Assembly: GCA_028874365.1 (NCBI GenBank)
Contig: JAPPJZ010000018.1
Location: 80,435 to 144,434 of the forward strand
Reading direction: 5' to 3'
Length of the DNA: 64,000 bases
Source: Chloroflexota bacterium
Lineage (GTDB): Bacteria > Chloroflexota > Dehalococcoidia > Bin125
In this document: positions 1,563 through 37,813 of the stretch, piece by piece
Layout: each line of letters starts with the position of its first letter
Position numbering within the stretch: position 1 is the stretch's first letter
Program-made: the position numbers and the translations under genes
The notes under the pieces: model-generated
Told to the model about the DNA's origin: nothing
Seen by the model: the letters and a program-made list of their open reading frames with translations, nothing else
Databases searched by the model: none

Positions 1563-1943
1563 CTACTTGTCGAACACCACCTCGATCAGCGGCGAACCGT
1601 CGACCCATTCCTGGACGTTGTCTTCGTTGATGTACTCGCTCAGCTTCTTGGCAGAGAGGAAGACTGAACGCTTCTCGGCCGGGTCGGTGACGGCGCGGGC
1701 GGCACCATCGAGGTCGGCCTCGGTGGATTGCTTCAGGTGGAACGTAATGGCGGGATTGGCGAGCACGTTGGCGTACCACGAGCGCGGGCCGGGGCGGCCG
1801 GTGATGTAGTAGCGGTCGTCGACGTTGTGGAACCAGATCTCGATTCGCTTCGGCTCACCGCTGCTTCGGCCGGTGGTGGTGATGTCGATGACGAGATCGT
1901 TGGCCAGCGCCTCGGCGACGGCGGGATCGGATGTTGATGTCAC
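1563..1943 (-). CDS. deazaflavin (F420)-dependent nitroreductase family protein (DDN/PPOX-like)
   Basis: GRSSGEPKRIEIWFHNVDDRYYITG...WYANVLANP is characteristic of the DDN family. Probable GTG start overlaps the ogt stop (GTGA). Confidence 0.6.
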   Translation of the reverse strand: MTSTSDPAVAEALANDLVIDITTTGRSSGEPKRIEIWFHNVDDRYYITGRPGPRSWYANVLANPAITFHLKQSTEADLDGAARAVTDPAEKRSVFLSAKKLSEYINEDNVQEWVDGSPLIEVVFDK

Positions 1944-2458
1944 TGGTCGTGTCCGTTCTTGGTGATCTGCAGGTGTCTGCGTTCGTGCTCGAGGAACCAT
2001 TCCTTGCGGTCGAGGCCGCCGCCGTAGCCGCCGAGGCCGCCGTCGGAGCGGACGATCCGGTGGCAGGGTACGGCGATCCCGAGCGGATTGCGCCCGGTCG
2101 CGGTCCCGACAGCGCGGTAGGCAGCCGGCTTACCGACTGCCTGGGCAATCTCCTGATAGGACGCCGTCTGGCCGGCCGGCACTTCACGAATTGCCTGCCA
2201 GACGGCTCGCTGGAAGTCGGTGCCCTCGGGATCGATATCGATCTGTTCGATTGCCTCCACGTCGCCCTCGAAGTATCCGGCGACTGCGTCGCGGACGAAC
2301 TCGGCCTCGCTCGACAACTCTTCCGCCGCCTCGTCGGTATCCGGTGACAACACCGGTCGCGCCCACGTCTCGACGAAGCCGGCCTCGTGCAGCGCTCCGT
2401 CGCGAATGGCGAGGTACATCGTGCCGAGCGGTGTGTCGATCCAGCAGTGTTCATCCAT
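1940..2458 (-). CDS. ogt: methylated-DNA--protein-cysteine methyltransferase
   Basis: Active-site PCHRIV motif, YQEIA, NPLGIAVPCHRIVRSDG. Start at the internal Met (MDEHCWIDTPLG) is likely; the ORF extends to 2482. Confidence 0.8.
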   Translation of the reverse strand: MDEHCWIDTPLGTMYLAIRDGALHEAGFVETWARPVLSPDTDEAAEELSSEAEFVRDAVAGYFEGDVEAIEQIDIDPEGTDFQRAVWQAIREVPAGQTASYQEIAQAVGKPAAYRAVGTATGRNPLGIAVPCHRIVRSDGGLGGYGGGLDRKEWFLEHERRHLQITKNGHDQ

Positions 2459-2596
2459 CGCTGCTCTCCTGCTCACGTGCATCAGTCTTGTGCATCAGTG
2501 TCAGGCTATGGCCGGCGGCGGTAGAACGCAAGTACTATTCATGGCTCGCGTCGACTGGGCGATAGGCTGCCATTGAGATTGGAGCGTCGAGGGAGC

Positions 2597-3700
2597 ATGT
2601 CCGATCGCGACAACCGAGCCATTCGCCTGACCGATCTGGCGCGTTGCGGCGGTTGAGGATCGAAGTTTGGCCCCGAGGGGCTGGCTCACGTGCTGAGTCA
2701 TCTCGGTCCGCAGTTCCCGCCCGCCGAGCACCCGGAGTTGCTGGTTGGTCTGGCGCGCCCCGACGACGCCGCGGTGTACGCGATCGACGACGAGCGCGCG
2801 CTGGTGCAGACGCTCGATTTCTTCGCTCCGCTGGTTGACGACCCGTATCAGTTCGGCGCGATTGCCGCGGCGAATGCGATGTCCGACGTCTATGCGATGG
2901 GCGGGCGCGTGCTATTCGCGCTCAATATTGCTGCGTTTCCCGAGGACCTGCCGCCCGACGTGATCGCGGATGTGCTGCGCGGAGGGGCCGACAAGGTACG
3001 CGAGGCGGGCGCCGTCGTCGCCGGCGGACACACGATTATCGACGAAGAACCGAAGTACGGTCTCGCTGTGACCGGAGAGGTTCCCCGCGACCTGATCCGC
3101 ACGACCGGGGGAGCGCAGCCGGGCGACACGATCATCCTGACGAAGGAGATTGGCACCGGAGTGCTGATCGGCGCGAACCAGCAGGGGGCGGTTTCGGAGG
3201 AGCACTGGGACGCGGCGATCTCGCAGATGATGACGCTCAATCGCGACGCGGCGGAGGTGTCGTCCCAGGGGGACCTCGCCGCCGGGGTGCATGCGATTGC
3301 GGACGTGACGGGCTTCGGGCTCGCCGGACACCTGCACGAGATGGCAGAGCTGAGCGATGCGGCGATCGAGATCGACCTGGGCGCGGCGCCGGCGCTGGGC
3401 GGCCTCTCGGAGGCCGTCGCTGCGGGATTCGGCAGCGGCGGCCAGGGTCGGAACCGCGAGTACTACGGCGCTCGCCTGACTGTCGTTGGCGGCCGGGAAC
3501 TGACGGCGTTCGAGGAGGCGCTGCTGTACGACCCTCAGACGTCGGGCGGGTTGCTGATTTCGGCGGGGATCATCGAGGCACCGCACCTGATTCACGACCT
3601 GCAAGAGCGTGGCGTCGGGGCGACGCCGATCGCGCGGGTGACGGAGGCGGCCGAGGGTGGCCAGCTCGTCGTCAAGCCGACTCACACGCCGCGGGTTTAA
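2597..3700 (+). CDS. selD: selenide, water dikinase SelD (selenophosphate synthetase) with in-frame TGA (Sec) at 2654-2656
   Basis: Translation from ATG 2597 (GGAGG Shine-Dalgarno upstream) gives MSDRDNRAIRLTDLARCGG-U-GSKFGPEGLAHVLSHL. This aligns with E. coli SelD [25 protein letters not shown], with U at the Cys17 position and the Lys conserved. Downstream PurM-like domains are in the same frame as the 2690 ORF. Confidence 0.8.
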
Positions 3701-3768: not shown

Positions 3769-4989
3769 GTGTCCACCCATGATGCCGACGTTGCCGTCAT
3801 TGGGGCGGGGATCCTGGGGCTTTCGACTGCGATGGCGCTGGCGACGAAGCACGCGGGGTTGCGGGTGGTCTCGTTGGAGCAGGAGTCGGGCGTTGGGCGG
3901 CACCAGAGCGGGAACAACTCGGGTGTGATTCACTCGGGGCTGTACTATCGGCCGGGCTCGGCCAAGGCTCGGATGGCGGTTGCCGGGGCGGAGCGGATGT
4001 ACGCCTTCTGCGCGGAGCACGGGATCGGCGCGGAGCGATGCGGCAAGGTGGTGGTCGCGACGCACGAGTCGGAGCTCGAGCGGATGCGGGAGTTACAGCG
4101 TCGCGGCGACGCCAACGGCGTGCCCGATATCCGAGAACTCGGTGCGGACGAGCTGCGCGAGTTCGAGCCCAATGCGGCGGGCGTGGGTGCGTTGCACATT
4201 CCCTCGACCGGCATCGCCGACTATCAGGCGGTCTGCGAGAAGTACCGCGAGCTGTTGGAGTCGGCCGGCGGATCGGTGCGGCTGCGCTCGCGGGTTTCGG
4301 GCGTGCGCGTCGAGTCGGACGGTGTCGAACTGGCCACGACAACGGGCGTTGTGCGGGCGAAGTATGCGGTCAACTGTGCGGGACTCCAGGCCGATCGGAT
4401 TGCGCGGCGGGCGGGGGCGTCGGAGGCTCGCGACCTGCGGATCGTGCCGTTTCGCGGCGAGTACTACGACCTGGTGCCGTCGGCGCGGGGGATGCTCAGG
4501 AACCTGATCTATCCGGTGCCGGACCCGGCGTTTCCGTTCCTGGGCGTGCATTTCACGCGGCGGCTGGATGGGTCGGTCGAGGCGGGGCCGAACGCGGTGC
4601 TGGCGCTCAAACGCGAGGGCTACCGCTGGCGCGACATCGCGGTGCGCGACGCGGCCGAGTCGCTGTCCTGGCCCGGCTTCCTGCGGCTTGCTCGGGACCA
4701 CTGGCAGACCGGCCTGGGCGAGGTCTGGCGGAGCGCGAACAAGTCGGCGTTTGTCAAGGCGCTGCAGCGGCTGATGCCCGGCCTCGAAGCGGACCAGCTC
4801 GTGCGGGGCGGTGCGGGGGTGCGGGCGCAGGCGTTGCGGCGCGACGGGAGCCTGGCCGACGATTTTGAGATCGCGCGGCAGGATCGGTTGATTCACATCC
4901 TGAATGCGCCCAGTCCTGGGGCGACGGCGTCATTGTTGATCGGTGAGGAGATCGCGTCGACGGCGGAGTCGGCGTGGTTGGGCGGTTGA
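3769..4989 (+). CDS. lhgO: L-2-hydroxyglutarate oxidase / FAD-dependent oxidoreductase
   Basis: N-terminal FAD motif VAVIGAGILGLSTA and LhgO-family similarity along the full length. Confidence 0.7.
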   Translation: MSTHDADVAVIGAGILGLSTAMALATKHAGLRVVSLEQESGVGRHQSGNNSGVIHSGLYYRPGSAKARMAVAGAERMYAFCAEHGIGAERCGKVVVATHESELERMRELQRRGDANGVPDIRELGADELREFEPNAAGVGALHIPSTGIADYQAVCEKYRELLESAGGSVRLRSRVSGVRVESDGVELATTTGVVRAKYAVNCAGLQADRIARRAGASEARDLRIVPFRGEYYDLVPSARGMLRNLIYPVPDPAFPFLGVHFTRRLDGSVEAGPNAVLALKREGYRWRDIAVRDAAESLSWPGFLRLARDHWQTGLGEVWRSANKSAFVKALQRLMPGLEADQLVRGGAGVRAQALRRDGSLADDFEIARQDRLIHILNAPSPGATASLLIGEEIASTAESAWLGG

Positions 4990-5417: not shown

Positions 5418-6338
5418 ATGACCTATCAGCCACCACCAGATCCATCGGCGAAACCTCCCTTTTTCCACGTCGGCATTGGGGAACGTTACAGGGTTGCGGA
5501 GAATCATCGCGTACGACATATTGGGAAGCTAGATTTGACATATGAGGAACTCGAGCGCCAGTTCTTGATACCGTATCAGCGTCGTGAAAACATCTTGATT
5601 CACGGCATTACCCTTGGATTCGATAAGATTAGGCAGATCGTAATATCGCAATCGGACGAATCAGCTGGACTGATCAGGATGCGATTGGAGATCCGGGCAA
5701 AGGAACGGGCCAAAAGGAGTGGGAACAAACCGTCAACAGTGAATTCATGGGATATAGCTAGAAATGCTACCGTGATAACCGACGAGATCTTGGGAAGAGT
5801 TGCACCGGCGGTCTCTCAGCAGGATAGAACACCGATGAACACCCCTGATCCCCGCAGAGTGTTCGTAGTTTCCGGGCGTGACTCAAACAATCACGAAGCG
5901 ATGTTTACATTCCTACAGTCTCTCGATCTGAATCCTATCGAGTTTCGAGTTGCACGGAGAATGACCGGCCGACCCTCACCGTACATTGGCGAGATTCTTG
6001 ACGTAGCCTTTTCCGAAGCACAAGCCATTATAGTACTGATGACCCCCGATGATGAGGCGAGACTGCTCCCGCAGCACGAGACGGATTTGAGCGGGCAAGC
6101 AAGACCTAATGTGTTGTTCGAAGCGGGAATGGCAATGGGGCGGGATCCGGATCGGACCGTCCTCGTCGAGATAGGAAAGTTACGGCCATTCAGCGATATC
6201 AGCGGGTTGCATATCCTACGATTCGATGACAGTTCTCAGGTGAGACAAGAACTGGCCCAACGACTAGAGGATGCGGGGTGCCAAGTTGACGTAGAGGGTA
6301 CTCACTGGCACACCGCAGGCAACTTCGACATTCCTTGA
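5418..6338 (+). CDS. TIR-like domain protein: unknown N-terminal domain fused to a C-terminal TIR-like (CAP12/PCTIR-type) nucleotide-binding domain
   Basis: C-terminal RRVFVVSGRDSNNHEAMFTFLQSLDLNPIEF...AFSEAQAIIVLMTPDDEAR...NVLFEAGMAMG matches the TIR-like family (VFVVHGRD...A..L...LGL.P...FAIVLLTPDD...NV.FE.G). Local GC is about 50% against about 67% in the flanks. Confidence 0.55.
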   Translation: MTYQPPPDPSAKPPFFHVGIGERYRVAENHRVRHIGKLDLTYEELERQFLIPYQRRENILIHGITLGFDKIRQIVISQSDESAGLIRMRLEIRAKERAKRSGNKPSTVNSWDIARNATVITDEILGRVAPAVSQQDRTPMNTPDPRRVFVVSGRDSNNHEAMFTFLQSLDLNPIEFRVARRMTGRPSPYIGEILDVAFSEAQAIIVLMTPDDEARLLPQHETDLSGQARPNVLFEAGMAMGRDPDRTVLVEIGKLRPFSDISGLHILRFDDSSQVRQELAQRLEDAGCQVDVEGTHWHTAGNFDIP

Positions 6339-6342
6339 TTTG

Positions 6343-9144
6343 CTAGAGCCGTTGATTTGAGACAACCGGCTCCGAGGCTAGGAGGCGGCGGAGGGGGCGG
6401 AGGTCGGGGAGGTCGAGGATTTCGGTGAGGCCGTCGTCGAGCCTGCCGCGGGTTGGGCAATCGACCATGGCGGGGAGGCGCTCGAAGCTGGAGTCGGCGA
6501 GTTCGTCGAAGAGGTCGGAAAGGTCTGTGATTTGCTGCTCTGAGAGCTCTCGGACATCGAGGACCGGCATCCGTTCGAGATCGCCCTTCTTCAGTGCGAC
6601 CCAACCTGCTCTGGTGGTCGTGCGGGTGGCCAGAAGGGACAGGATTCCAAGACTGCTGTTCAGCCAGGCCGCTAGTGCCTTGTCGTACTTGCCTTCGGTC
6701 GTCTTAATCTCCCAGAACACGTTTGACAACACGGGTTGCTCAGAACACATTGCCACGACGCGCACCGTGTTCAGCCACATACGCTCGGCCACCAAGAGTT
6801 GTCCAGCCATCTTCCACAAGCGTTGACCGTATCCGGGCTTTTGTCCGCCGCGCGGTTTGGCAAGCTCAGACAAGTAGCGATTCGGCGCGCAGGTCATTGT
6901 GGTGCGGTCGTCGGTCTCATGTCCCTCCACGAGCGGGAAAGCCGTCACCGAGTCGGTACGGTCGAATCCATCAATCAACCTCCGCCGATCTGGTCCCACG
7001 GCCGCAAGATCGGAGAGCGCGGACATCGGGACCTTGCCGTGAGTTGAGATACCCGGTAGCGAAACGTCTCCGTCTTCGGTCAGGCTGAGCGCGATGCGGA
7101 GCACGTCTGCGCGGGCGAACTGGACGCCCGCCCACTTGCGCTCGGTGAATCGCGACATCGGAATCGAGATCGATTCGCCGACGTGTCGGCCGCCAACGGA
7201 GAGCAGTGCCGTGCCGGGTTCTTCGAGCTTCGCCGTTTGTTTACGGGCGATTGCGTCAGCGGCGCGCTGTGCATCGATTACCGCGTCCGGATTGCGCCAG
7301 AGATTGACGTAGGTTGTGCGATGCTCCATGTCGATATCTCCGTCGGATCGCCTAGTAGCGATCAGCAGCATCTCGGAGAGGTCGGTGCTGTCGGAGAACA
7401 TCCAGCGATCGGGGTCGTGTGACGCGATCACCATCTCCAGCTTGAAGTCTCGCTCGATCAACGAGCGGGTCTGTTGCCACGACGAGCCGGTGCAGAGGGT
7501 GACCGGCAACACTAGCGCGAGGCGGCCCTCGCCGAGGCGCAGCTTGGGTGCGGCAGTTGCGACGAACGCCGCGCCCAAGCCTGAGATGGCGGAGCCTCGT
7601 CGCCTCTTGAGACGCCTCGACAGCTCCTGCTGCATCTTGCGACGCTCCGCGGGCGGCTTCATACCAAGCAGCATCATTCCGGGGCGCGTGTAAGGCGGAT
7701 TCATGATCGCCAGGTCGAGTTCGGGCAGACGCACGGTGTGACCCGCTGCCGTCTGAATGCCGCCGCCGGTGACCTGCTCGGACGCAGGCGTCTCGATGCC
7801 GAAAGCCTCGGCTGAGATCGAGTGCTGGACAGGGGCCGAGTCGACGCCGAGGAAGTCGACAGATCCGAGCGAGACGGTGTTGCCTTCGGCCTCCAGAGAC
7901 ATGACATACAGGTTCATGGAGTCGAATTCGATCCGGGGATTGAGCATCGCAAGACTGGTGGCGGCGAAGTGGATCGCGGAGAGTTGCACGTCGTAGCCGT
8001 GCAGCGCCTCTTCGACCAGTTCCTTGTGCAAGAGCGGAGCATTCTGTCCGCCAGCGTTCAGGTGGCGCCGCTCGGCTTCGGAGGCGACCGCCATCAGCAA
8101 CGTTCCGGTCCCGCATGCGAGGTCGGCGACATTGAGGGAAGAGGGAAGCTCGTAGTCGGACCAGTTGAAACCGTTCGGCCAGTCCTCGAAGACCAGGCGG
8201 GCCAGCATCGTCGCGGCGGGGACGGAGGTGTAGTAGGCGCCGGTGAACTTGGCGTCGGTCAACAGCGTGTGGAAGAGGCGGCCGGCGAGGTCGTGTCCCT
8301 CAATGCGATCTGTCTGTCTGACCGCCTTCACGAGCGGATCGATGGCGCCGCGTTGGAGATCGTCCGGGGAGTCGCTAACGATCTCCATGATCTCTATCGC
8401 GATCTCGAACACTGGGACGTAGTCGATCTCACGACAGATGGTGTCCCAAACGTCGCGCAGCTCAGATGCGCTGGCCTTGGCCATCTCACTGGCGGTGGGC
8501 ACGTTCTCGTTGATTGCTGAGAGCCGGTCCTGGAAGGCCAGGGCGTTGAACAGGACGAGACAACCGATGCGCAACGCGGCAGTGCGATCGCTTTCCTTGT
8601 CGGCTTTCGCGATCACGTCGGCGATACGGCGTCCGATGTTGGCGTGCTTGTTGATCGCGGCGGCGGCATCGTGCAGTGCCAGTCGCACGTCTTCGGTCGC
8701 CTGCACAACCAGGTCAGCGCCCTCAATCTGCTGGGGCAGCGTGCGTAGGTCGTCGGCGAGCTGGGTGATTCCTCCGTCTCGCAGGATTGGGTCGCCATAC
8801 ACGTCCTGCCTGGAACTGTGCAGGAACCACTGGAGGTTGAGAGTGTGTTTGAGCTCGTCGTGAATGTCGTCGACGTGCTTGAGGCCGTCGGGGTAGAGGA
8901 CGCCGACGCGGGCGACGGCGTCGGGGAAGTCCTGGACGCGCTGGTCGAGCTGGTCGTCGAGGGCGGGTCGGTTGGATTCCCACTTGCACTCGATGAGGAC
9001 GAGTTCGCCGGTGCGGAGTTCGAAGCGGATGTCGGGGGCGTCGCCTCGGCTGCGGCGTTCCGCGCGGGCCTTGATGCCGCGGGCGCGGAGGAGTTGTCCG
9101 AGGAGTGGGTTGACGGCTTCCTCGCGGGCGGTTTCGGTGGTCAT
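6343..9144 (-). CDS. MmeI-like type IIL/IIG restriction-modification enzyme (N-terminal PD-(D/E)xK nuclease plus N6-adenine methyltransferase plus target-recognition domain)
   Basis: N-terminal APDIRFEL..VLIECK (PD...ExK). MTase motif I VADLACGTGTLLMAV and motif IV MNPPYTR. About 930 aa single polypeptide. Start set at MTTETAREE (ATG 9142-9144); the ORF-track upstream extension is Pro/Arg-rich. Confidence 0.7.
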   Translation of the reverse strand: MTTETAREEAVNPLLGQLLRARGIKARAERRSRGDAPDIRFELRTGELVLIECKWESNRPALDDQLDQRVQDFPDAVARVGVLYPDGLKHVDDIHDELKHTLNLQWFLHSSRQDVYGDPILRDGGITQLADDLRTLPQQIEGADLVVQATEDVRLALHDAAAAINKHANIGRRIADVIAKADKESDRTAALRIGCLVLFNALAFQDRLSAINENVPTASEMAKASASELRDVWDTICREIDYVPVFEIAIEIMEIVSDSPDDLQRGAIDPLVKAVRQTDRIEGHDLAGRLFHTLLTDAKFTGAYYTSVPAATMLARLVFEDWPNGFNWSDYELPSSLNVADLACGTGTLLMAVASEAERRHLNAGGQNAPLLHKELVEEALHGYDVQLSAIHFAATSLAMLNPRIEFDSMNLYVMSLEAEGNTVSLGSVDFLGVDSAPVQHSISAEAFGIETPASEQVTGGGIQTAAGHTVRLPELDLAIMNPPYTRPGMMLLGMKPPAERRKMQQELSRRLKRRRGSAISGLGAAFVATAAPKLRLGEGRLALVLPVTLCTGSSWQQTRSLIERDFKLEMVIASHDPDRWMFSDSTDLSEMLLIATRRSDGDIDMEHRTTYVNLWRNPDAVIDAQRAADAIARKQTAKLEEPGTALLSVGGRHVGESISIPMSRFTERKWAGVQFARADVLRIALSLTEDGDVSLPGISTHGKVPMSALSDLAAVGPDRRRLIDGFDRTDSVTAFPLVEGHETDDRTTMTCAPNRYLSELAKPRGGQKPGYGQRLWKMAGQLLVAERMWLNTVRVVAMCSEQPVLSNVFWEIKTTEGKYDKALAAWLNSSLGILSLLATRTTTRAGWVALKKGDLERMPVLDVRELSEQQITDLSDLFDELADSSFERLPAMVDCPTRGRLDDGLTEILDLPDLRPLRRLLASEPVVSNQRL

Positions 9145-9170
9145 GGGTTCGATTGTCGCATAGGTGGGGA

Positions 9171-9240
9171 GTGCCCCCCTCTGCCTTCGGCATCTCCCCC
9201 CGCCTGACGGCGGGGGGAGAGGGGACCGGAGGGCAGGTCC
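9171..9240. repeat. GC-rich hairpin repeat, family 2 copy C
   Basis: gcccccctctgccttcggcaTCTCCCCCCGCCtgacGGCGGGGGGAGAgggg with a perfect 12-bp stem. Lies at the right edge of the low-GC island. Confidence 0.5.
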
Positions 9241-9521
9241 CCGATCGAGTCGGGGAACCGGGAGTGTGGCGATTGGGGTCTGGGCCCCGCATCGAGTGCG
9301 GGGCATCGGGCTATTGCTGCCCAGGAGCCCCCCCTCTGTCTCTACGAAACATCTCCCAGTCGGCCGGTTGAATCATTCCCGACCGTGTGTACCGCCTGAC
9401 ACTGCGTTCCAGCCTCGGCCCCACCCGACTCGAGCCTCGATACAATGAGAACATCTGCGCGACTCAGTTCGGGAAAGCCAGGCTTCGATGCCGCGAAAAC
9501 ATCCAGACCTCGACCGAGACA

Positions 9522-11819: not shown

Positions 11820-12050
11820 CGGTGCGCGTACTGACGGCTCGGCAAGTCAACCGGATCCTGGAATGACAGGGATTCGTTCAGACCCGGCAACGCGGGAGTC
11901 ACCGCTGCTACCGGGGTGTTGTTGGCGGTCGCACCCGACTCGTCACGGTTGCACAGCACCGCGACATCCCTCCAGACACACTCAGAACGATCATCAAACA
12001 ATCCGGTCTCCCGAGCGACCTCTTCCGTTAGGCCGCATATCCTCCCTTTC

Positions 12051-13235
12051 ATGACTACCAACCACCTCCGACCGCCGCTCGACGGCGTCCTCGTGATTAA
12101 TGCCGGGCAGATTCTGGCGGCTCCGTTCTGTGCGACGATTCTGGCCGAGTTTGGGGCGGATGTGATCAAGGTTGAGCGGCCGGGGTCGGGCGAGCCGAAC
12201 CATGGGACGATTTCGTACGTGCAGGAGAATCGGTCGCAGCGCGGCGTGACCTGCAACCTGGCGGACGCTCGGGGCAAGGAGCTGTTTCGCGGGCTTTGCG
12301 AGCGGGCCGATGTGCTGATCGAGAACTTTCGGCCTGGGACGCTGGAGAAGATGGAGCTGGCGCCGGACTCGCTGCGTGAGCTCAATCCCGGGCTGGTTGT
12401 GACGCGGGTCTCGGGCTACGGACAGACGGGTCCGTACCGTGAGCGTGCGGGATTTGACCGGGTGGCGCTCGGTTTCGCGGGGATGACCTATGCGACCGGT
12501 TGGGCCGACGGTCCGCCGGTGCGGCCGGGCTATATGGTCGCCGACTACAGCGCGGGACTGACCGCTGCGATGGGCACGATGATGGCGCTGCGCGCTCGCG
12601 ACGTAAACGGCGGGGTCGGGCAGGACGTTGACGTGGCGCTCTACGAGGCGATCTGGAAGCAGTCGGGGACTCATGCTTCGCAGTTTTTCAGGACGAACGA
12701 GAACCGCGAGCGGACAGGCAACTACTGGCCCGGCGTCGTGCCGGCGGAGCAGTGGCAGACGGCGGACGGGCATCACCTGATCATCAACGCGACCACGCAG
12801 GGCACCTTCGTGCGCCTGACGGAGGCGATGCAGCGACCTGAGCTGCTCAAGGATCCACGCTTCGAGGATCAACGAGATCGGCGCAGGAACTACGAGGCGA
12901 TTCATGAGATCGTCGGTGAATGGATCGGCACGCTGACGTTGGAGCAAGTTCAGAGGCTGCTCGACGAGCACGGCGTGCCGGCGACGAAGGTGTACGCGAC
13001 GTCCGACGTGATGTCGGACGAGCACTACGTCGCTCGCGAGCAGATCGTTGACGTGCCTTCGGAGCAGCACGGGATATTGCCCCAGCCTGGCGTCGTGCCG
13101 CGGCTCTCAAAGACGCCGGGCAAGGTGAAGCATCGGGCGCCAACGCTGGGTGAACACAACCAGGAGATCTACGGCGGGATGCTCGGGATCAGCGATGATG
13201 AGCTGGAAGAACTCTCGGCGGACGGAGTGATCTGA
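12051..13235 (+). CDS. family III CoA-transferase (CaiB/BaiF)
   Basis: LDGVLVINAGQILAAPFCATILAEFGADVIKVERPG, then GYGQTGPY and GDVDAG-like core; about 395 aa. The ORF-track start at 11916 is an upstream extension. Confidence 0.8.
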   Translation: MTTNHLRPPLDGVLVINAGQILAAPFCATILAEFGADVIKVERPGSGEPNHGTISYVQENRSQRGVTCNLADARGKELFRGLCERADVLIENFRPGTLEKMELAPDSLRELNPGLVVTRVSGYGQTGPYRERAGFDRVALGFAGMTYATGWADGPPVRPGYMVADYSAGLTAAMGTMMALRARDVNGGVGQDVDVALYEAIWKQSGTHASQFFRTNENRERTGNYWPGVVPAEQWQTADGHHLIINATTQGTFVRLTEAMQRPELLKDPRFEDQRDRRRNYEAIHEIVGEWIGTLTLEQVQRLLDEHGVPATKVYATSDVMSDEHYVAREQIVDVPSEQHGILPQPGVVPRLSKTPGKVKHRAPTLGEHNQEIYGGMLGISDDELEELSADGVI

Positions 13236-22206: not shown

Positions 22207-22650
22207 TCACGCCTCGGGATGCGCCGCGAGCCAGTCGGCGAACTGGGCGCGACGTTGCTGCATCTGTGATTGGTCGTCACTGCCGCGGATGTAGTCGGCC
22301 CAGTCCGTGACGGTGCCAGGCAACGCTGGCGGCGGGCCGCCTTGCAGGCCGGCGGTGGGACGCTGCCTGGTTGCGAGCGACAGCGATTCAGCCTCGCGGG
22401 CGAGCTCTTCGCGGACCGTGGCCTCGCGCTCGCGAGCCGCACGTTCGGCGATTAGATCGCGCCATGTATTGGCGACCTCGTCCGGCTGGTCCGCTGCCGA
22501 CAAGCGGTCGCGCTCCGTGTCGGAGAGTTCGCCGATCGCGTGCAGCATCGCCTCGCGCAGGGCGTTGCCGTCGGCGTCGTTCGACGCCCCGATCTCGCGG
22601 TCGGGCGGCGGCTCCGGCTCCTGCGTCGCGGTGAGTTGAGAATTGTCCAT
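22207..22650 (-). CDS. acidic hypothetical protein (scaffold-like?)
   Basis: Acidic, helical, E/R-rich (AERAAREREATVREELAREAE). Lies upstream of the capsid-like gene. Confidence 0.35.
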   Translation of the reverse strand: MDNSQLTATQEPEPPPDREIGASNDADGNALREAMLHAIGELSDTERDRLSAADQPDEVANTWRDLIAERAAREREATVREELAREAESLSLATRQRPTAGLQGGPPPALPGTVTDWADYIRGSDDQSQMQQRRAQFADWLAAHPEA

Positions 22651-22669
22651 ACGTGCCTCCAAACAAAAC

Positions 22670-22701
22670 GAGCGCCGACGAACAATGTCCGTTCGGCGCT
22701 C
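22670..22701. promoter_or_regulatory. stem-loop (9-bp perfect stem, 14-nt loop) in a divergent intergenic region
   Basis: GAGCGCCGA-cgaacaatgtccgt-TCGGCGCTC. Confidence 0.3.
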
Positions 22702-22857
22702 GGAGGCGCGCGGTCCGTGGCGTTGATATGTCGAATCTACGTGCTAGTCGGCAAGAACACAAGTTCTCGATATGTTGCGCCGAATACAGTTAGCGGATCG
22801 CATACCTGCATTAGGACGACGGCAGGAGGTCGCAGAGCCTGCCTATATCCTGTGCGA

Positions 22858-25272
22858 ATGCTCAACGACACCCGGATTCTCGACCTGACCGACGAACCAC
22901 TCGCGCTCGGCGCTCGGATGCTGGCGGACATCGGGGCGGACGTCGTTCGCGTCGAAGACGTGCGCGGAGACGATCTGCGGATGCGCGAGCCGGCGATCGG
23001 CGGAGACGCTCCACGGGTCGAACGCGGCTGGGCGCACCTGTTGTACAACGCGGGCAAACGCTCGGTCGCGGTGGATGTGGATGACCCGGCAACGTGGACC
23101 CGTATCGAGGCGATGCTGCCGCAGTTCGACGCGGTGCTTGCGCCGCTGGAGCCATCGGGGGCGCTGTCTGCATGGCTGGAGGGCGGACGCAACGGCGAGT
23201 GGTCTTCCGAGATACCGGTCGTCGATGCGGAGTTCCGCCGAGCCGCGAATGAACCGATGACCGACCTGACTGCGATGGCGGCAGGCGGACATGTGGTGCT
23301 TAACGGACATCCCGAGGATCCGCCGGTCTGGCCGGCCGGCAACCTGTCGCACAAGCAGGGCTCGATCGCGATGGCCGAGGCGGCGATGGCGCTGATCATG
23401 CAGCGCCGCCGGGGCGGCGGCGTCGGCCGGATTACGGTCGGCATGCAGGAGGCGGTCACGTTCACCACGCTGCAGACGGCGAGTGGCAACTGGTGGACCT
23501 GGCACGGCACATCGCCGAGCCGGCACATCCCGATTGGTTCGGGCGTCACATTTCAGGCCAGGGACGGTCACTGGCTGTCGTTCACCATCCATCCGCCGCA
23601 CTGGTACCGCTTCGTCAACTGGGTCGACGAGGTGCTGGGGCTCGCGGAGGACGAGTTGCGCGGCGAGGATTGGGACGATGAGTTCTGGCGCGAACAGCAC
23701 CAGCCCGAGATCGTGCCGTGGATCGATCGGCTTTGCAAAGCGCTCACCGTCACGGAGCTGCACGACACAGGCCAGGAACTCGGCCTGCTCGTGTTGCCGA
23801 TCAATACGGTCGAGGAAGTCGCCAACGATCCGCACCTGATCGCTCGCGGGTACTACCAGTCGGTCGACCATCCCCAACTCGGAACCAGCCTGATCCTTCC
23901 GCGCTCTCCGATCCGAACCCGCGGCGAACAGCCCCGAGCCAGACGAGCCCCCACCCTCGGCGAACACACCGACGAGATTCTTCAGACCTCCCCCTCCGCG
24001 GTGCGGCGGAGGGAGTCCGTTCCCAGCCGCGCGTCAGTCCTGTTCAACGGCGCAGCGCCACCACCGAGGCGCCCGCTCGACGGCGTCCGCGTGCTCGACT
24101 TCACCTGGGCGATCGCCGGATCGCTTGGTACGCGGCTGCTGGCCGACCTCGGCGCAGAGGTGTTGAAGATTGAGTCGGAATCGCGGATCGACCCGATTCG
24201 CTACCGCGGCGTGCAGCCTCCTGACCACTTCTCGATCAACACCAACGGCACGTTCAATGACTGCTCCGGCGGCAAGAAATCGGTCACGCTCAACCTGAAG
24301 ACGGAGGAGGGCATTGAGGCCGTCCGCGAGCTGGCCAGGCATGCCGATCTCGTGACGTCGAACTACACGCCCTATCGGCTCGACCGCTGGGGCATCGGCT
24401 ACGACGACCTGCGCGAGATCAAGCCCGACATCATCGTCTGTAACGTGGCGGTGATGGGCATCGAGGGTCCGCGGGCTGAGTGGCGCTCGTACGGCAACGG
24501 GATCGTCGCCATGTGCGGACTCGCGCAGCGCTCCGGCTTCCCGGGCAAAGCGCCGATCGGGCTGGGCACGCTGCACACCGACTTCACGGTGCCCTACTAC
24601 CTGGCGACCTCGGTGATGGCGGCGCTCGACCACCGTGAGACCACCGGCGAGGGCCGCTATCTCGAGATCGCCCAGTACGAGACGGCCGTGCAGCTGCTCG
24701 ACACGGAGCTGATCGAAGCCCTCAACGGCGGCGGCGAGCGTCCGCGGATGGGCAATCGATCGCCCTTCATGTCACCGCATGGCGTCTTCCCTGCCTCCGG
24801 CGATGAACGCTGGATCGCGATCGCCTGCCGCGACGAGTCGGACTGGCGCAACCTCTGCCGGGTGATCGGCCGCGCCGACCTCGCGTCGAGGCCGGAACTG
24901 GACTCGCTTGCCGGCCGTCAGGCCAACGAGGACGAACTAGAAGCTGCGATAGCCAACTGGACCCGAACCCAGGACGACTGGACCTCGTACCGACTGCTGA
25001 TCAACGCCGGTGTCCCGGCCAGCCCGATCGAGCGGCTGGAAGACTTCTTCGACGGCCAGGACCGGGCAATGCGCGACAACTACAACCCGGCCGATTCGCC
25101 CGAGGGCTGTACGTTCCAGATCCAGCAGGAGCCGATCCTCTGGGACGGGGAGCGTCTGCCCGCCGTCCGCGCGCCGATCTGGAGCGAGCACACCGAGGAC
25201 GTGCTCAAAGGCCTGTTGGGCTACAGCGACGAGGACATGACTCGCCTGGCCGCGGCTGGAACGCTTGGCTAG
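22858..25272 (+). CDS. fused tandem family III CoA-transferase (two CaiB/BaiF domains in one about 804-aa polypeptide)
   Basis: Domain 1 begins MLNDTRILDLTDEPLALGARMLADIGADVVRVE. Domain 2 begins DGVRVLDFTWAIAGSLGTRLLADLGAEVLKIES. The ORF-track start at 22540 is a non-coding upstream extension. Confidence 0.75.
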   Translation: MLNDTRILDLTDEPLALGARMLADIGADVVRVEDVRGDDLRMREPAIGGDAPRVERGWAHLLYNAGKRSVAVDVDDPATWTRIEAMLPQFDAVLAPLEPSGALSAWLEGGRNGEWSSEIPVVDAEFRRAANEPMTDLTAMAAGGHVVLNGHPEDPPVWPAGNLSHKQGSIAMAEAAMALIMQRRRGGGVGRITVGMQEAVTFTTLQTASGNWWTWHGTSPSRHIPIGSGVTFQARDGHWLSFTIHPPHWYRFVNWVDEVLGLAEDELRGEDWDDEFWREQHQPEIVPWIDRLCKALTVTELHDTGQELGLLVLPINTVEEVANDPHLIARGYYQSVDHPQLGTSLILPRSPIRTRGEQPRARRAPTLGEHTDEILQTSPSAVRRRESVPSRASVLFNGAAPPPRRPLDGVRVLDFTWAIAGSLGTRLLADLGAEVLKIESESRIDPIRYRGVQPPDHFSINTNGTFNDCSGGKKSVTLNLKTEEGIEAVRELARHADLVTSNYTPYRLDRWGIGYDDLREIKPDIIVCNVAVMGIEGPRAEWRSYGNGIVAMCGLAQRSGFPGKAPIGLGTLHTDFTVPYYLATSVMAALDHRETTGEGRYLEIAQYETAVQLLDTELIEALNGGGERPRMGNRSPFMSPHGVFPASGDERWIAIACRDESDWRNLCRVIGRADLASRPELDSLAGRQANEDELEAAIANWTRTQDDWTSYRLLINAGVPASPIERLEDFFDGQDRAMRDNYNPADSPEGCTFQIQQEPILWDGERLPAVRAPIWSEHTEDVLKGLLGYSDEDMTRLAAAGTLG

Positions 25273-25851: not shown

Positions 25852-27177
25852 CTAGGGAATGTCGGGGTCGTAGTCCATCCCGATGTGTCCGCGCTCGCGG
25901 AGGCCTTCGATCTCCGACTCGGAGTAGCCCAGCACCTTGCGGTACACGTATTCGTTGTCTTCGCCCAGCGCGACCGCGGGCTTGCGAATGCTGAGCGGCG
26001 TCTCGGAGAATCTCATGAACGGCGTGTTGTATCGGAACGAGCCGATGTCATCGAAGAGATGGTGTGCTTCGTTGAGGCGTCGATGCTGCACATGGCGATC
26101 GTCGTAGATGCGGGACGAATCCAGCACCGGCGCCGCCGGCACGCCGTGCGATTGCAACAGATGCATCAGCTCGTAGTCGTCCTGAGTCGATGTCCACTCG
26201 CCGATTCGCGCGTCCAACTCGTCGTGGCGCTCGAGCCTTCCCGCTTCGCGCCGCAGTTCGGGACCGCGGGCCCACTCGGGGTCGCCCATCGCCGCTCGCA
26301 ACCCGAGCCAGTGGTCGTCGTCCATCACCGAGATCGAGATCCAGCGGTCGCCACCGTCGGAGCCGTCGCCGTTCGATTTGGCCGGGTACAGGCTGTAGGG
26401 CGCGTGACCGTTCACGGATCGGTTGCCGATGCGTTGCTGAACCACGTCATTGAGCGAGTAGTCCATGAACGCCTGGGCGAGCATGCCGCCGGCGCATTCG
26501 GCCTGGGCCAACTCGATGAACTGTCCCTCACCGGTCCGCCGACGATGGCGCAGCGCCGCCATGATCGCGAAGGCAGCGTGCGCGCCGGCGACGTAGTCGC
26601 CGGAGAAGATCGGGGAGATGTAGGACGGGTCGAGGTCGGGATAGCCGCGGAGCAGCGTGTGGCCCATCACGGACTCGAGATGCACGCCGAGCGCCCTGGC
26701 GAATCGGTAGGGACCGTCTGAGCCATAGGCGGGCATCCGGAGCACGACGATGTCCTCGCGGGCGTCACGCAGGAAGTCGGGGCCGATGCCCAACTTCTCC
26801 AGCGTGCCTGAGGCGTTGTTCTCGACGAGGGCATCGGATTTCTCGACCAGGTTGGCAAAGATCTCGCGGCCTTCGTCGGAGATCAGGTCGACGGTCATCG
26901 AGTGTTTGTTGCGAAACTGCTGCACGAAGGTTGGGGAGTAGTTCCAGGGCCGCGGACCGGGTTCCGCATTCGGGTAACCCGCTGCCCATCCCGCCCCCGC
27001 TTTGACCATCTCGGCCGAGGGACGAGCCTGACCGCCGCGGGTCATCGGTTGCCAGACGTGGACGTTCTCAACCTTGATCACCTCAGCGCCGAGGTCGGCC
27101 AGCAGCGTGGTGCCGAACGTCCCCGCCCAGACGACGGTCAGGTCGATGATGCGGACGCCCTGAAGCGGCAATGGCAT
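25852..27177 (-). CDS. family III CoA-transferase (CaiB/BaiF)
   Basis: MPLPLQGVRIIDLTVVWAGTFGTTLLADLGAEVIKVE. Confidence 0.8.
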   Translation of the reverse strand: MPLPLQGVRIIDLTVVWAGTFGTTLLADLGAEVIKVENVHVWQPMTRGGQARPSAEMVKAGAGWAAGYPNAEPGPRPWNYSPTFVQQFRNKHSMTVDLISDEGREIFANLVEKSDALVENNASGTLEKLGIGPDFLRDAREDIVVLRMPAYGSDGPYRFARALGVHLESVMGHTLLRGYPDLDPSYISPIFSGDYVAGAHAAFAIMAALRHRRRTGEGQFIELAQAECAGGMLAQAFMDYSLNDVVQQRIGNRSVNGHAPYSLYPAKSNGDGSDGGDRWISISVMDDDHWLGLRAAMGDPEWARGPELRREAGRLERHDELDARIGEWTSTQDDYELMHLLQSHGVPAAPVLDSSRIYDDRHVQHRRLNEAHHLFDDIGSFRYNTPFMRFSETPLSIRKPAVALGEDNEYVYRKVLGYSESEIEGLRERGHIGMDYDPDIP

Positions 27178-27194
27178 GGTCGGAATGCTACCTG

Positions 27195-27413
27195 CTACTC
27201 GAACAGCTCACGTGGCAGGCCCGAGCGGCGGATAATGGCCACGAGGGTGCCGGGACGCACCACGCGGTGCAACGGAACAGTGAGCGGCCTGTTGAGGTCG
27301 CCATCGGGCGGCATGAAATTCACATGGCTGCCGCGTTGACTCAGTTCTTCGATCCCGTTCCGCGAGAGAATCTCACACACCTGCCAACCCGACAGCACCC
27401 GCAGTCTAGCCAA
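27195..27413 (-). CDS. hicA: HicA toxin (mRNA interferase)
   Basis: LSGWQVCEILSRNGIEELSQRGSHVNF...GTLVAIIRRSGL matches the HicA pattern (..ILEK.GF...R.KGSH..Y...GTL..ILKQAGL). Confidence 0.65.
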   Translation of the reverse strand: MARLRVLSGWQVCEILSRNGIEELSQRGSHVNFMPPDGDLNRPLTVPLHRVVRPGTLVAIIRRSGLPRELFE

Positions 27414-28972: not shown

Positions 28973-29115
28973 GAGTCGGAGTGTAGGGGCACACACAACG
29001 ACGGCAGTCGAGTACTTCGATCCTCGATCTGAGACGGTCTCGCCCGTTCTCCCTAGCGAACAACGTGCGCTTGCAATATAGAACGGATCATCGATAGCGG
29101 GTCTATGCTGGCCGC

Positions 29116-29346
29116 ATGGTTACGACGAATCCGATCCTGCGTATCCGCAGGGCGTTGCGCTCGGTCGGCGCCAGCGCCGATCAGGCCGACGAGTTTGCAA
29201 GCGCGATCGACGAGATCTACGTCAGTCGGGAACAGTTCGAAGACCGGATCGGCAGGATGCTTGCAGACCACCGCCGGCAGTTGCTCCTGGAGATGATCGT
29301 GATCGTGAGCATCGCTGTGGGCGTCATTCTTGCGGTTCTGGCGTAG
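29116..29346 (+). CDS. small C-terminal TM-anchored protein, unknown function
   Basis: 76 aa ending LLLEMIVIVSIAVGVILAVLA. Confidence 0.3.
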   Translation: MVTTNPILRIRRALRSVGASADQADEFASAIDEIYVSREQFEDRIGRMLADHRRQLLLEMIVIVSIAVGVILAVLA

Positions 29347-29595
29347 AAGGCTGGCCCGGCTACGACTGCGTTGCGGCTCCCGCTGAGATCGCGCCGAATC
29401 AAGAGCCCTTGCGCGAGCGGCTTCCGTACCATCCCGGACTGCCACCGCTGGTGTGCGAGCACATGCTTCACCACCGAGGCGAACGTAGCATGATGGTGAC
29501 GGGCACGAATCGCTGTTGGTCCCGCGCCCAGGCTGGGAACAGACATCTGCGCGGCAGCTCCATCACAACGGGGAGCTCCTGGAAAGAGGCTCTTG

Positions 29596-31260: not shown

Positions 31261-32113
31261 TGTCGTGAGGCGTCTGCTGCTGGTTCCGCTGACCCTCGTG
31301 TTGCTTGCGGTCGCCTGCGGCTCGGGCGACGAAGCGCGGCCCAACACGGGCACCGCAACGTCGGAGCGGGCCGAACGTCAGGCGACGGTCGCTCAGCAGC
31401 AGGAGGCTGCAGTCCAGGAGGACGCGGAGGCTGTCGAGGCTGGCCAGGAGACTCAATCGATTCAGCAGGTGCAGCAGCAGCAACAGTCCGCTGTCGAGGT
31501 TGAACAGCAGCACCAAATTCAGCCGACGCAGGAAGAGACGGAAGGCGAGGAACAGGTCGACGAACTGCCTTCCGAAATCGTGGGCGTGCACAAAGGTGTG
31601 CGCTCGGAGCGGAATGTGCTCGGCGAGCCGGATGCGCCGGTGGAGATCCGCTACTTCGGCGACTTCACTTGAGGCGGCTGTCAGTGGTTCGCGGCTCAGG
31701 TTGAGCCGCTGATCGTCGAGCGACTGGTCGCGACCGGCAAGGCCCGCTTCGTCTTCCGTCACTTTCCCGTTCGCGGCGACGCGGCGGACTTTGCAGCCTA
31801 TGTCGTCGAGTGCGCAGCCAATCAGGGCGCGTTCTGGCCGCTGCACGACCGCTATATGGCCGGCGATGAGACGCTGTTCACAGAGGCGGGGCTGCGCCGG
31901 CAAATCACGTTCGAAGGACTCGACTATGCCGAGTTCGTGACATGCATGACCGAGGGTCACACCGTACCGACGGTGATGGCCTCGCGCGCCGAGGGGGAGT
32001 CGCGCGGCGTCGCGGGCACACCCACGGTCTTCGTCAATGGTGAGCACGTCGATGCGACGTTTGAAGCGATCGAAGCGGCCGTCGAGCAAGCGCTGACCGG
32101 AGCCAACCAGTAA
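31235..32113 (+). CDS. DsbA-like thiol:disulfide oxidoreductase lipoprotein, selenoprotein paralog 1 (U-GGC active site; TGA at 31670-31672)
   Basis: Signal/lipobox LLAVACGSG and a Q/E-rich linker. IRYFGDFT-U-GGCQWFAAQVEP aligns with the DsbA F-x-D-F-x-C-P-x-C motif. The downstream region is in frame with no stops to TAA 32111-32113. An alternative GTG start lies at about 31265. Confidence 0.7.
31691..31709 (+). promoter_or_regulatory. SECIS-like hairpin 19 nt downstream of the in-frame TGA of paralog 1
   Basis: GCGGCTCA-ggt-TGAGCCGC, perfect 8-bp stem with a G/U-containing loop. Identical to the paralog 3 hairpin. Confidence 0.45.
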
Positions 32114-32160
32114 TCGGGTTCGTCACTTCGACGCGAGAGCAGTTCGAGTACTCTCGGATC

Positions 32161-32994
32161 ATGGGACGCTACCGGTGGCTCGTTGTCCTGGCGCTGGGGA
32201 TGGGGATGGCGGTCGCGGCCTGCGGTTCGGGCGGAGGACCGGTCGACCAGGACGGGCAACCGGTGTCCACCGAGACCCCGCGCAGCGAACGAGCCGAGCG
32301 CGAAGCCACGATCATGGAGCAGCAGGCCCAGCAAGTCGCCGGTCAGACCGCGCAGGATGAGCCGGTCCCGGATACTCCGATCGAGTCAGGGGCGGGCGAG
32401 GTCGAGGACGAGGCAGCAGCGAGCGGGGTGATCGACTTCGGCCACCGCGAGGGTTTGCCGTTCGCCCGGAACGTTGTCGGTGATCCTGACGCGCCGGTGG
32501 TGATTGTCGAGTATTCGGACTTCCAGTGACCGAGCTGTCGAAGTTTCGCGTCTCGGTTCGAGCCGCAAATCATGGAAGAAGTGATTCGCACCGGTCTGGC
32601 GCGGTACGAGTACCGGCATTTCATCATCTTCGGCGCGGCCTCGGAGTTTGCTGCAATGGCGACGGAATGCGCGGGCGATCAGGGGGCCTGGTGGGAATTC
32701 CACGACGAGTACCTGTTCGAAGGCCGCGCGCGGACGTTCACCCGCGCTGGGGCGATTGAAATCGCAGAGCGTGAGGGCCTCAACATCGCCCAGTTCACGC
32801 AGTGCATCGATAACGAAGAGCACCGTGATCGCATCCTGCAGATGCAACAGCAAGGCTTCGCTGAAGGCGTCAATGGCACGCCGACGTTCCGAGTGAACGG
32901 CGAGCCGGGCGGGCGTTCGCTGAGCGCAATTCTTGACAAGGTCCACCAGGCTGCGGAGGCAGCCGAGGCCGCAGAAGGGCAAGAGGGAGGCTAA
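32161..32994 (+). CDS. DsbA-like thiol:disulfide oxidoreductase lipoprotein, selenoprotein paralog 2 (U-PSC active site; TGA at 32527-32529)
   Basis: Lipobox AVAACGSG. VVIVEYSDFQ-U-PSCRSFASRFEP is a canonical DsbA C-P-x-C with Sec replacing the first Cys. In frame with 32572..32994. Confidence 0.7.
32548..32566 (+). promoter_or_regulatory. SECIS-like hairpin downstream of the in-frame TGA of paralog 2
   Basis: GCGTCTCG-gtt-CGAGCCGC (7 of 8 bp). Same spacing (+19) and same CTGTC box at +6..+10 as the other two paralogs. Confidence 0.4.
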
Positions 32995-32996
32995 CG

Positions 32997-33902
32997 ATGG
33001 TCAGGATCGGACTGATCGCGGCGGCCCTGGCGCTCCTGGTCGCGGGCTGTGGCTCCGGTGGTGGTGACGCACCGGCATCACAGCCGCAAACGGCCGCGAG
33101 CGTCCAAGCGCAGCAGCAAGAGCAAACGGAGCAATCGGCGACGGCGTACGCGGCCGGCCAGAGCGAATCGACACAGGATCAGGCTCAAGCCCAGGCGTCG
33201 CCTCAGGCCGACCAGCCCACGGCTCAGGCCCAGGCCGGGCAAGCTGTCGGACAGGAAGCCGATCAGCAGACGACGCAGCAGGCGCAGCCGGCCACCGACC
33301 AGTCTGTGGCTGAGCAGGCCGAGAGCGAAGAGCCGGAACAGCAGGCGATGGTCGCTCAGATCATCGAATCTGGTCATCGGGCCGGCCTGGTCGCTGACCG
33401 CAACGTGATCGGTGATCCGAACGCACCGATCGTGATCACCGAGTATTCCGATTTTCTTTGAGGAAACTGTCGCCGCTTCGCGGCTCAGGTTGAGCCGCGC
33501 GTGATCGAAGAGTTGGTTCGCACCGGTCTGGCGCGATTCGAGTATCGGCACATTCTCAACCACGGCCCGCCTTCGGTGGCGGCCGCGCTGGCAACGGAGT
33601 GCGGCGGCGACCAGGGCAAGTGGTGGGACTTCCACGACCACTACATGACGACGCAGGACTTCAGCCGCGAGGGGGCCGTGGCACTGGCCGCCTCGCTGTC
33701 ACTGGACACCGATCAGTTCGCCCAGTGCTTCGATGACCAAACACACCTCGAACTGGTCGAAGGGCAGCATCGCGCCGCGGCCGAGGCGGGCGTGAGTCGT
33801 ACGCCGACGGTGCGGATCAACGGCGAGGGCGCGGCGGTCGTGGCCGACGCGCTGATCGACCAGGTGATGGCGCTGGCCGCCGAACTGGAGGCCGAGGGCT
33901 AG
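32997..33902 (+). CDS. DsbA-like thiol:disulfide oxidoreductase lipoprotein, selenoprotein paralog 3 (U-GNC active site; TGA at 33459-33461)
   Basis: Lipobox LLVAGCGSG and a long Q/A/E-rich linker. IVITEYSDFL-U-GNCRRFAAQVEP. In frame with 33501..33902. Confidence 0.7.
33480..33498 (+). promoter_or_regulatory. SECIS-like hairpin downstream of the in-frame TGA of paralog 3
   Basis: GCGGCTCA-ggt-TGAGCCGC; identical to the paralog 1 hairpin. Confidence 0.45.
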
Positions 33903-34024: not shown

Positions 34025-34098
34025 CGGACTTCTTCAAGAACATCCGTACTGTTCGCGCGCTCTGATGCGAACGGCGTTGATGGCTGGAAAGGGTCCGA

Positions 34099-37513: not shown

Positions 37514-37813
37514 CTAGAGCACGACGATCAAGATCGCCACAACGCCAATCACGATCGCCGACGTGGCGATCCCAACGCGCCAGATGTGCTCCTTGAGGCG
37601 GGCCTCGAGCGCGAAGAGGTCGGTGGCGTCAGCGAGGCCCTCACGAGCCATTTCGGATGTCTGAGTGATCGCTCGAGCCTGCTCATCTCCGAAACCGGCG
37701 TTTCGAAGGTTGTCGAAGGCAGCCAAGGGATTGAACGCCGTGTGGGCATGGTACACCTCGGCAGAGGCCTCCAAGACTGCACCGACCACCGGTCTGATGT
37801 ACCATGCGCTCAA
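37514..37813 (-). CDS. small membrane-anchored coiled-coil protein (DUF1640-like?)
   Basis: 99 aa ending in a TM segment (IATSAIVIGVVAILIVVL). Confidence 0.4.
   Translation of the reverse strand: MSAWYIRPVVGAVLEASAEVYHAHTAFNPLAAFDNLRNAGFGDEQARAITQTSEMAREGLADATDLFALEARLKEHIWRVGIATSAIVIGVVAILIVVL

Follow-up and report, generated by a model that had tools for sequence, protein, structure and literature searches.

The subject of this report is a selD gene in a 64,000-nucleotide stretch of DNA from a Chloroflexota bacterium of the class Dehalococcoidia (assembly GCA_028874365.1, contig JAPPJZ010000018.1, positions 80,435 to 144,434). The whole 64-kb stretch is called the window here, and all positions are counted from its first letter. 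The full-length coding sequence of selD occupies positions 2597..3700 of the forward strand and consists of 367 codons and a stop codon, with a UGA at codon 20 that is predicted to specify selenocysteine (Sec). Translation would begin at the ATG at 2597-2599 and end at the TAA at 3698..3700. The UGA (2654..2656; residue U20) is preceded by the TGC codon of Cys17 (2645..2647), with which it makes a C-G-G-U (CxxU) motif, and is followed by the AAG codon of Lys23 (2663..2665), all on the forward strand. Read across the TGA, the gene translates as MSDRDNRAIRLTDLARCGG*GSKFGPEGLAHVL. The ATG at 2597 is the single in-frame ATG 5' of the TGA, and the nearest in-frame stop upstream of it is the TAG at 2522-2524. 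Altogether, the analyses described below make it very probable that 2597-3700 is one intact selD, encoding a 367-residue selenophosphate synthetase (selenide, water dikinase) with Sec at codon 20.

A preliminary description of this DNA, made from its letters, had proposed the ATG at 2597, the in-frame TGA and an N-terminal peptide, and our translation was identical to that proposal. The GGAGG Shine-Dalgarno sequence that it placed before the gene was not found literally. Present instead are a purine-rich GAGGGAG (2589..2595, forward strand), ending 1 nt before the ATG, and a GGAG (2581..2584, forward strand), located 12 nt 5' of the ATG. The GAGGGAG is not conserved, with relatives having gagcgac or gacccaa in its place. 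Many close relatives (L001, L002-L006, L010 and L023) keep (t/a/g)GGAGcg at an identical distance from the ATG, and the GGAG is the likeliest Shine-Dalgarno core, although this assignment is tentative because the spacing to the ATG is long.

Profile and structure searches were carried out with the 367-residue product, in which the TGA was entered as Cys, and identified the protein as SelD, as had been proposed. The NCBIfam model TIGR00476 (selD) scored 358.3 bits against a curated cutoff of 125 and was covered from position 1 to 306 of 311, while NF002098 scored 324.4 bits against a cutoff of 299 and was covered from position 3 to 343 of 347; these two matches span protein residues 6-357. The best match amongst solved structures was E. 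coli SelD (3u0o; E=4.2e-63, residues 7-359 against 4-344), and the Aquifex aeolicus enzyme (2yye) matched at E=3.7e-49. The phmmer alignment to 3u0o, in which RAIRLTDLARCGG-U-GSKFGPEGL covers the E. coli loop, places U20 on the catalytic Cys17 of E. coli and K23 on its catalytic Lys20, which confirms the earlier proposal that the TGA occupies the Cys17 position with the Lys following three residues later. Residues D57, D74, N93, D97 and D236 are identical to the aligned D51, D68, N87, D91 and D227 of E. coli SelD, which, from E. coli structure work, we take to be the conserved Asp and Asn residues that bind ATP and metal. Additionally, precomputed hits assign PF00586 (AIRS) and PF02769 (AIRS_C) to the exact 336-aa product of the shorter open reading frame (ORF) discussed below, and both domains occur in all 120 homologues listed bar one fragment. 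Synthesis of selenophosphate from selenide and ATP is the function predicted from this family membership. A tblastn search counted one SelD in the window; a second copy was looked for there and none was found.

The main support for decoding of the TGA comes from comparison with related loci. A scan of one genome per species yielded 80 of these, with 49-93% protein identity to the SelD of the window; they belong to Chloroflexota-type metagenome-assembled genomes (MAGs), mostly Dehalococcoidia, the exceptions being one MAG labelled Acidobacteriota and two without a phylum label. The codon aligned to 2654-2656 is TGA in 68 of the 80 loci and TGC or TGT in the other 12. The peptide RLT[DSE]L[AT]xC[GA]G before the Sec/Cys codon is conserved in frame in all 80, no stop occurs within the 14 codons 5' of the TGA in any of them (0/80), and a Cys at position -3 to the Sec or Cys residue (C-[GA]-G-[U/C]) is found in 78 of 80, in Sec-type and Cys-type loci alike. 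The 17 closest relatives also conserve the ATG and the peptide MS[DE]RD. Over the 19 codons from ATG to TGA, comparison of these relatives with the window gave 119 differences at third, 26 at first and 11 at second codon positions, amounting to 97 synonymous and 36 nonsynonymous codon changes. This in-frame, third-position-biased conservation upstream, combined with the Sec/Cys column, argues that the region is translated sequence and that the TGA marks neither a pseudogene nor a genuine stop. The pattern goes beyond chance, because the TGA falls on the catalytic Cys17 column and recurs in 68 of the 80 loci, the remaining 12 having a Cys codon there. Past the TGA, the two columns of the Lys23 codon designated A10 and A11 are invariant across all 69 Sec-type sequences of alignment A1, which is described below.

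Two hairpins lie 3' of the TGA, within the coding sequence and on the forward strand. The proximal hairpin, H1 (UUGGCCC-CGAG-GGGCUGG; 2667..2684), has 7 bp including G.U pairing and a loop 17 nt past the UGA. It corresponds to the inverted repeat ttgGCCCcgagGGGCtgg at 2667-2684, which begins 11 nt past the TGA and has a 5-bp G/C core with G.U/U.G extensions, and it is located where, presumably, the minimal selenocysteine insertion sequence (SECIS) element of E. coli sits. The distal hairpin, H2 (UGGCUCA-CGUGC-UGAGUCA; 2682..2700), also has 7 bp, with a GU-containing loop 32 nt past the UGA. The preliminary description had put forward the inverted repeat as a possible SECIS. Its position and its agreement with published constraints held, while the proposal was incomplete in that it overlooked H2, which has the stronger signal of selection.

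Pairing was counted in an ungapped codon-register alignment of 69 Sec-type sequences (A1) and in one of 12 Cys-type sequences (A2). In A1, 79.1% of cells were compatible with the two-hairpin pairing, compared with 73.0+-0.6% in column shuffles (0 of 500 reached the observed value) and at most 54.4% in slid controls, and eight pairs had changes on both sides. Pairing in A2 was 50.0%, no better than in controls. An H1-like hairpin was present in 59 of the 69 Sec-type loci, with its register shifted between clades. For H2, 84% of cells were paired in 65 distinct Sec-type sequences versus 57% in the Cys-type. The clearest compensatory change in H2 is a switch between U33-A43 and G33-C43, in which column 33, at the third position of an Ala codon, changes together with column 43, where a Ser or Arg codon has its first position; GCU occurs with AGY in 11 sequences and GCG with CGN in 36.

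Folding stability was compared with synonymous recodings drawn from the codon usage of the window. The whole hairpin region of selD here folded at -15.5 kcal/mol against -9.8+-2.3 kcal/mol in the recodings, 1% of which were as stable. Across loci, the median z of the whole region was -2.6 for the Sec-type and -0.7 for the Cys-type (Mann-Whitney p=2e-6). Taken separately, H2 reached a z of -3.24 in the gene of the window (0.3% of recodings as stable), with medians of -2.94 for Sec-type and -0.37 for Cys-type loci. For H1 the z was -0.84 (35% as stable), with medians of -1.86 and -0.12, respectively; the test is weak for this hairpin, because the G-P-E-G peptide that it encodes is self-complementary at the codon level whatever codons are chosen. 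The published model of the bacterial SECIS (bSECIS) calls for a loop of 3-9 nt, a stem of 4-16 bp, a G in the first two loop positions, a spacing of 16-37 nt and a minimum free energy of -7.5 kcal/mol or lower (PMC13188914, Fig. 2 legend). Structures within these limits occurred in 54 of 69 Sec-type and 3 of 12 Cys-type loci, with 0.20 expected from recodings. H1 lies inside all four limits (loop CGAG, 7 bp, spacing 17, -8.3 kcal/mol), and H2 has the loop CGUGC, 7 bp and a spacing of 32, with a borderline energy of -6.7 to -7.5 kcal/mol. Altogether, these comparisons indicate that both hairpins are under selection specifically in Sec-type genes. The presence or absence of any hairpin at all failed to separate Sec-type (68/69) from Cys-type (11/12) loci and was not used as evidence. 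A lower stem around both hairpins (columns 4-10 with 50-56) was also considered and rejected, being kept solely in the close clade without consistent covariation.

Which of the two hairpins SelB would contact is a separate matter, and on the sequence data the chances that H1 is the site in selD seem to us evenly balanced. The position of H1 is that of the 'canonical SECIS' printed for Acetomicrobium SelD, GGGUCC-GGC-GGACCU, an example that has the proximal hairpin alone (PMC13326102), and the same is true of three Sec-type loci (L019, L065 and L076). It is a tenable, if tentative, alternative that the functional SECIS, and with it the SelB site, is the distal H2 (2682-2700), with H1 acting as a spacer or helper or being a by-product of the G-P-E-G peptide. 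In the window it is H2 that beats the synonymous recodings and H1 that does not, a difference tempered by the small power of that test for H1. Pairing is higher in H2 (84% versus 73% in H1), and the clean compensatory pair 33:43 lies there. The consensus favours a G-U dinucleotide in the loop (PMC13188914), and H2 has one there; strict G[G/U] loop matches occur at a spacing of 32-33 in 40 of 45 loci, and nine of the ten Sec-type loci without H1 keep H2. The energy of H2 alone straddles the -7.5 kcal/mol threshold, however, and its spacing of 32-33 nt is close to the upper limit of the consensus, whereas H1 lies within all four constraints. It seems improbable that both H1 and H2 are needed to recruit SelB.

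Further evidence on Sec decoding in this organism was provided by three tandem DsbA-like genes (Thioredoxin_4/DSBA) at 31256-33902 of the forward strand, each of which has an in-frame TGA in a UxxC motif. The three TGAs, which the preliminary description had already pointed out, are present at 31670..31672 (lipoprotein 1, FGDFT-U-GGC; Thioredoxin_4 99 bits, DSBA 46 bits), 32527..32529 (lipoprotein 2, YSDFQ-U-PSC) and 33459..33461 (lipoprotein 3, YSDFL-U-GNC), all on the forward strand and inside Thioredoxin_4/DSBA domains. The encoded proteins carry lipoprotein-type signals (…A[VA]ACGSG or …VAGCGSG) and a long Gln/Glu/Ala-rich linker. DsbA-like UxxC proteins are already known as a family of selenoproteins (PMC9312934, PMC1794560), and the presence of these TGAs supports the prediction that the host decodes UGA as Sec.

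The DsbA-like genes also have structures past their TGAs. In the first, the hairpin GCGGCUCA-GGU-UGAGCCGC (-13.2 kcal/mol) has its loop 26 nt past the UGA; the nearly identical hairpin of the third, likewise 26 nt past its UGA, is CGCGGCUCA-GGU-UGAGCCGCG (-15.6 kcal/mol), and the structure past the second TGA is weaker or different. Hairpins 1 and 3 share with H2 a GGCUCA/UGAGYC stem, a GU loop and a GCU-CAN-GUN codon context, which speaks for H2 as the SECIS of selD, although this resemblance was recognised by inspection only, because a covariance model missed the DsbA hairpins. At 2682-2700, 31691-31709 and 33479-33499 the same codons GCU-CA(C/G)-GU(G/U) (Ala-His/Gln-Val) stand in the same phase of the reading frame, and this common context could reflect a loop preference of SelB or be a coincidence. 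A more elaborate proposal, which we regard as rather doubtful, is that the SelD signal in this Dehalococcoidia clade is a tandem two-hairpin bSECIS, in which H2 would be the SelB site, with the stem and loop of the DsbA-like genes, and H1 a spacer or pausing helper, and in which the C-x-x-U motif could allow a resting intramolecular selenenylsulfide.

Several results weigh against the proposed Sec decoding and its downstream signal. Folding of the 33-, 47-, 67- and 101-nt spans downstream of the TGA was not significant against dinucleotide shuffles; the single-sequence z values were -0.45, -0.75 and -0.02 for three spans, and -2.0 was reached only for a 60-nt span. This test is mostly uninformative because of the 65% GC context, and comparative tests were used instead. 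RNAalifold gave only 3 consensus pairs for the 69 Sec-type sequences, a low yield due to the shift in the register of H1 between clades. The covariance model mentioned above (R1), built from H2 of 47 SelD loci, retrieved no DsbA-like hairpins at E<=10, which also counts against H2 as the SECIS, and its other matches were chance GC palindromes. As for the Sec machinery, ARAGORN detected no tRNA-Sec in the window or at 60 related selD loci, Pfam searches of 33 large ORFs of the window detected no SelA, SelB or SelU domains, and no selA, selB or selU was present beside selD in the 60 related loci. We infer that the Sec machinery is present in the host genome and unlinked to selD. The Rfam search belongs on the same list, with no SECIS or tRNA-Sec match in the window at the gathering score and none at E<=10 in 2400-3000, and is not weighed against Sec because the coding-region SECIS elements of bacteria vary so much that a match is not to be expected.

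The gene has been missed in its full length by gene callers. The mechanical ORF list for selD contains solely 2690..3700, a 336-aa frame with a GTG start, and the public assemblies ENA ERZ25069412 and Logan SRR10996926 both contain exactly this 336-aa product. The lengths of the best 22 protein-database matches are 308-350 aa, with 16 of the 22 at 336 aa, and the five close relatives retrieved start with MLRHLGPQF or MLSHLGPQF, the equivalent of GTG 2690. Homologues of the Cys-type are called full length and named SelD. The shorter call arises because ORF finders halt at the UGA and restart at the GTG (2690..2692, forward strand), which is a false start, and the 336-aa call is a truncation lacking the catalytic Sec and Lys. 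This agrees with the preliminary description, in which the 2690..3700 ORF had been taken for a truncated SelD. SelD is often misannotated (PMC13326102, PMC4561486).

It could nonetheless be argued that the TGA is a genuine stop and that the product is a 336-aa SelD-like protein without the catalytic loop, beginning at GTG 2690. This is the start chosen by ORF finders and public pipelines, and an SD-like (Shine-Dalgarno-like) GAGGGG lies 10-15 nt 5' of it, but that GAGGGG is the 3' arm of H1. Such a product would have no counterpart of Cys17 or Lys20, whereas the profile and E. coli alignments cross the TGA from residue 6-10, the 19 codons before it are conserved in frame with third-position-biased change, and Cys-type homologues are full length with Cys at the TGA codon. 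Taken together, these observations make a genuine stop highly improbable. Hardly any probability attaches, likewise, to a UGA read as something other than Sec (near-cognate Cys or Trp, or a reassigned code) or to a recent nonsense pseudogene, because, although the inserted amino acid is not identifiable from sequence alone and the window shows no Sec machinery, the TGA is kept in 68 loci at 49-93% protein identity with intact frames on both sides, the downstream structure is selected in TGA-bearing loci only, the Cys/Sec column is a classic selenoprotein signature (PMC4561486), and UGA ends many full-length, Pfam-supported ORFs of the window (the CoA-transferase at 11835-13235, the DUF885 gene at 29500-31260, MFS genes, MgtE and a histidine kinase), where it is an ordinary terminator, so that the code is not reassigned.

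In the explanation that we favour, decoding of UGA codon 20 would put Sec into the N-terminal glycine-rich loop, with the catalytic Lys three residues further on. During translation, SelB-GTP-Sec-tRNASec would be recruited by a bSECIS inside the coding sequence, probably within 2667-2700. SelD makes the selenium donor for its own Sec, and the gene may therefore depend on selenium supply by positive feedback, a hypothesis of the literature; reportedly, Guimaraes et al. posed the autoregulation of SelD as a question in the title of a 1996 paper. The preliminary description had called Sec-containing SelD a known autoregulatory variant, in which the known class is correct (PMC4561486, PMC1794560, PMC13326102), whereas 'autoregulatory' is a long-standing hypothesis.

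Among prokaryotic SelD genes, 19% encode Sec, and its position never varies (PMC4561486). Of the bacterial selenoproteins, SelD is one of the two with the widest distribution (PMC1794560), its Sec-containing form ranking second. The gene described here shares with the members of this class, such as the Sec13 enzyme of Aquifex aeolicus, the protein family, the single Sec position followed by the catalytic Lys, a coding-region stem-loop past the UGA and the truncation by automatic annotation (PMC4561486, PMC1794560). The Aquifex protein was solved as a Cys form (PDB 2yye/2zod). The local motif differs, being C-G-G-U-G-S-K here, with Cys at -3 and Ser at +2, G-A-G-C-G-C-K in E. coli and S-S-G-U-A-A-K in Aquifex; additionally, two adjacent conserved hairpins are present here, compared with one obvious hairpin in the class. 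The CxxU/CxxC arrangement of Chloroflexota SelD is typical of redox motifs, and these proteins are without the Cys19 of E. coli. E. coli SelD (3u0o) aligns from end to end, with the aligned Asp and Asn of the ATP/metal site and the Lys identical, but its catalytic residue is Cys17, and a UGA and a SECIS are accordingly absent, unlike in the selD of the window.

Compared with the E. coli fdhF-type SECIS and the bSECIS model (PMC13188914), selD here has the same placement of a stem-loop just 3' of a Sec-UGA inside the ORF, with H1 agreeing in loop, stem, spacing and energy and H2 in the G-U loop dinucleotide. It differs in the lack of Rfam-detectable similarity, in having two tandem hairpins under apparent selection and in the GU-loop hairpin 32-33 nt from the UGA, near the limit of the model. 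The three DsbA-like genes resemble the described DsbA-like UxxC selenoproteins in carrying TGA at the first Cys of CxxC and presumably use the same machinery (PMC9312934, PMC1794560); they are of a different family from SelD and serve as corroborating context for Sec decoding only.

The gene is flanked by an ogt-like methyltransferase gene (1940-2482, reverse strand) and a DAO-family FAD oxidoreductase gene (3769-4989, forward strand), neighbours that recur in public contigs. In one public contig with an identical SelD fragment (L081, 4080-5570) the DAO oxidoreductase has 496 aa, compared with the 406-aa ORF of the window, which points to a different stop or to a frameshift or assembly difference between the sources.

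Elsewhere in the window, a gene at 5418-6338 (forward strand) encodes a 306-aa protein with a CAP12/Pycsar-effector TIR domain (PF10137, 89.9 bits), and the adjoining 987-aa ORF at 6343-9306 (reverse strand), which is without a Pfam match, is convergent with it; the two may be an anti-phage defence pair. CoA-transferase family III (PF02515) is found in four genes (11835-13235 and 22456-25272 on the forward strand, 25852-27207 and 27755-29119 on the reverse strand), an unusual local concentration of paralogs, one of which is a 938-aa protein with two matched stretches. ORFs without a Pfam family at E<=0.001 were located at 34081-36132 (683 aa), 37798-38901 (367 aa) and 38979-40253 (424 aa) on the forward strand and at 51643-52644 (333 aa) on the reverse strand. 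The G+C content at third codon positions of these four is 0.83-0.88, of a strong coding type.

With the selD gene of the window, a well-described class gains one more member, and the gene is of use chiefly for correcting annotation. In public databases this gene and at least twenty close relatives are represented by 336-aa fragments, and homology pipelines can therefore under-count or mislabel selenium use in uncultured Dehalococcoidia. The two-hairpin arrangement, apparently under selection, and the conserved C-x-x-U motif are modestly new; the tandem signal, if true, would depart in architecture from the bacterial SECIS with its single hairpin. The general picture of SelD and of Sec decoding is unchanged by this gene. 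Together with the three DsbA-like UxxC genes, it marks the organism as a probable selenocysteine user, which fits the report that Dehalococcoidia MAGs rank with the bacteria richest in selenoproteins (PMC13326102).

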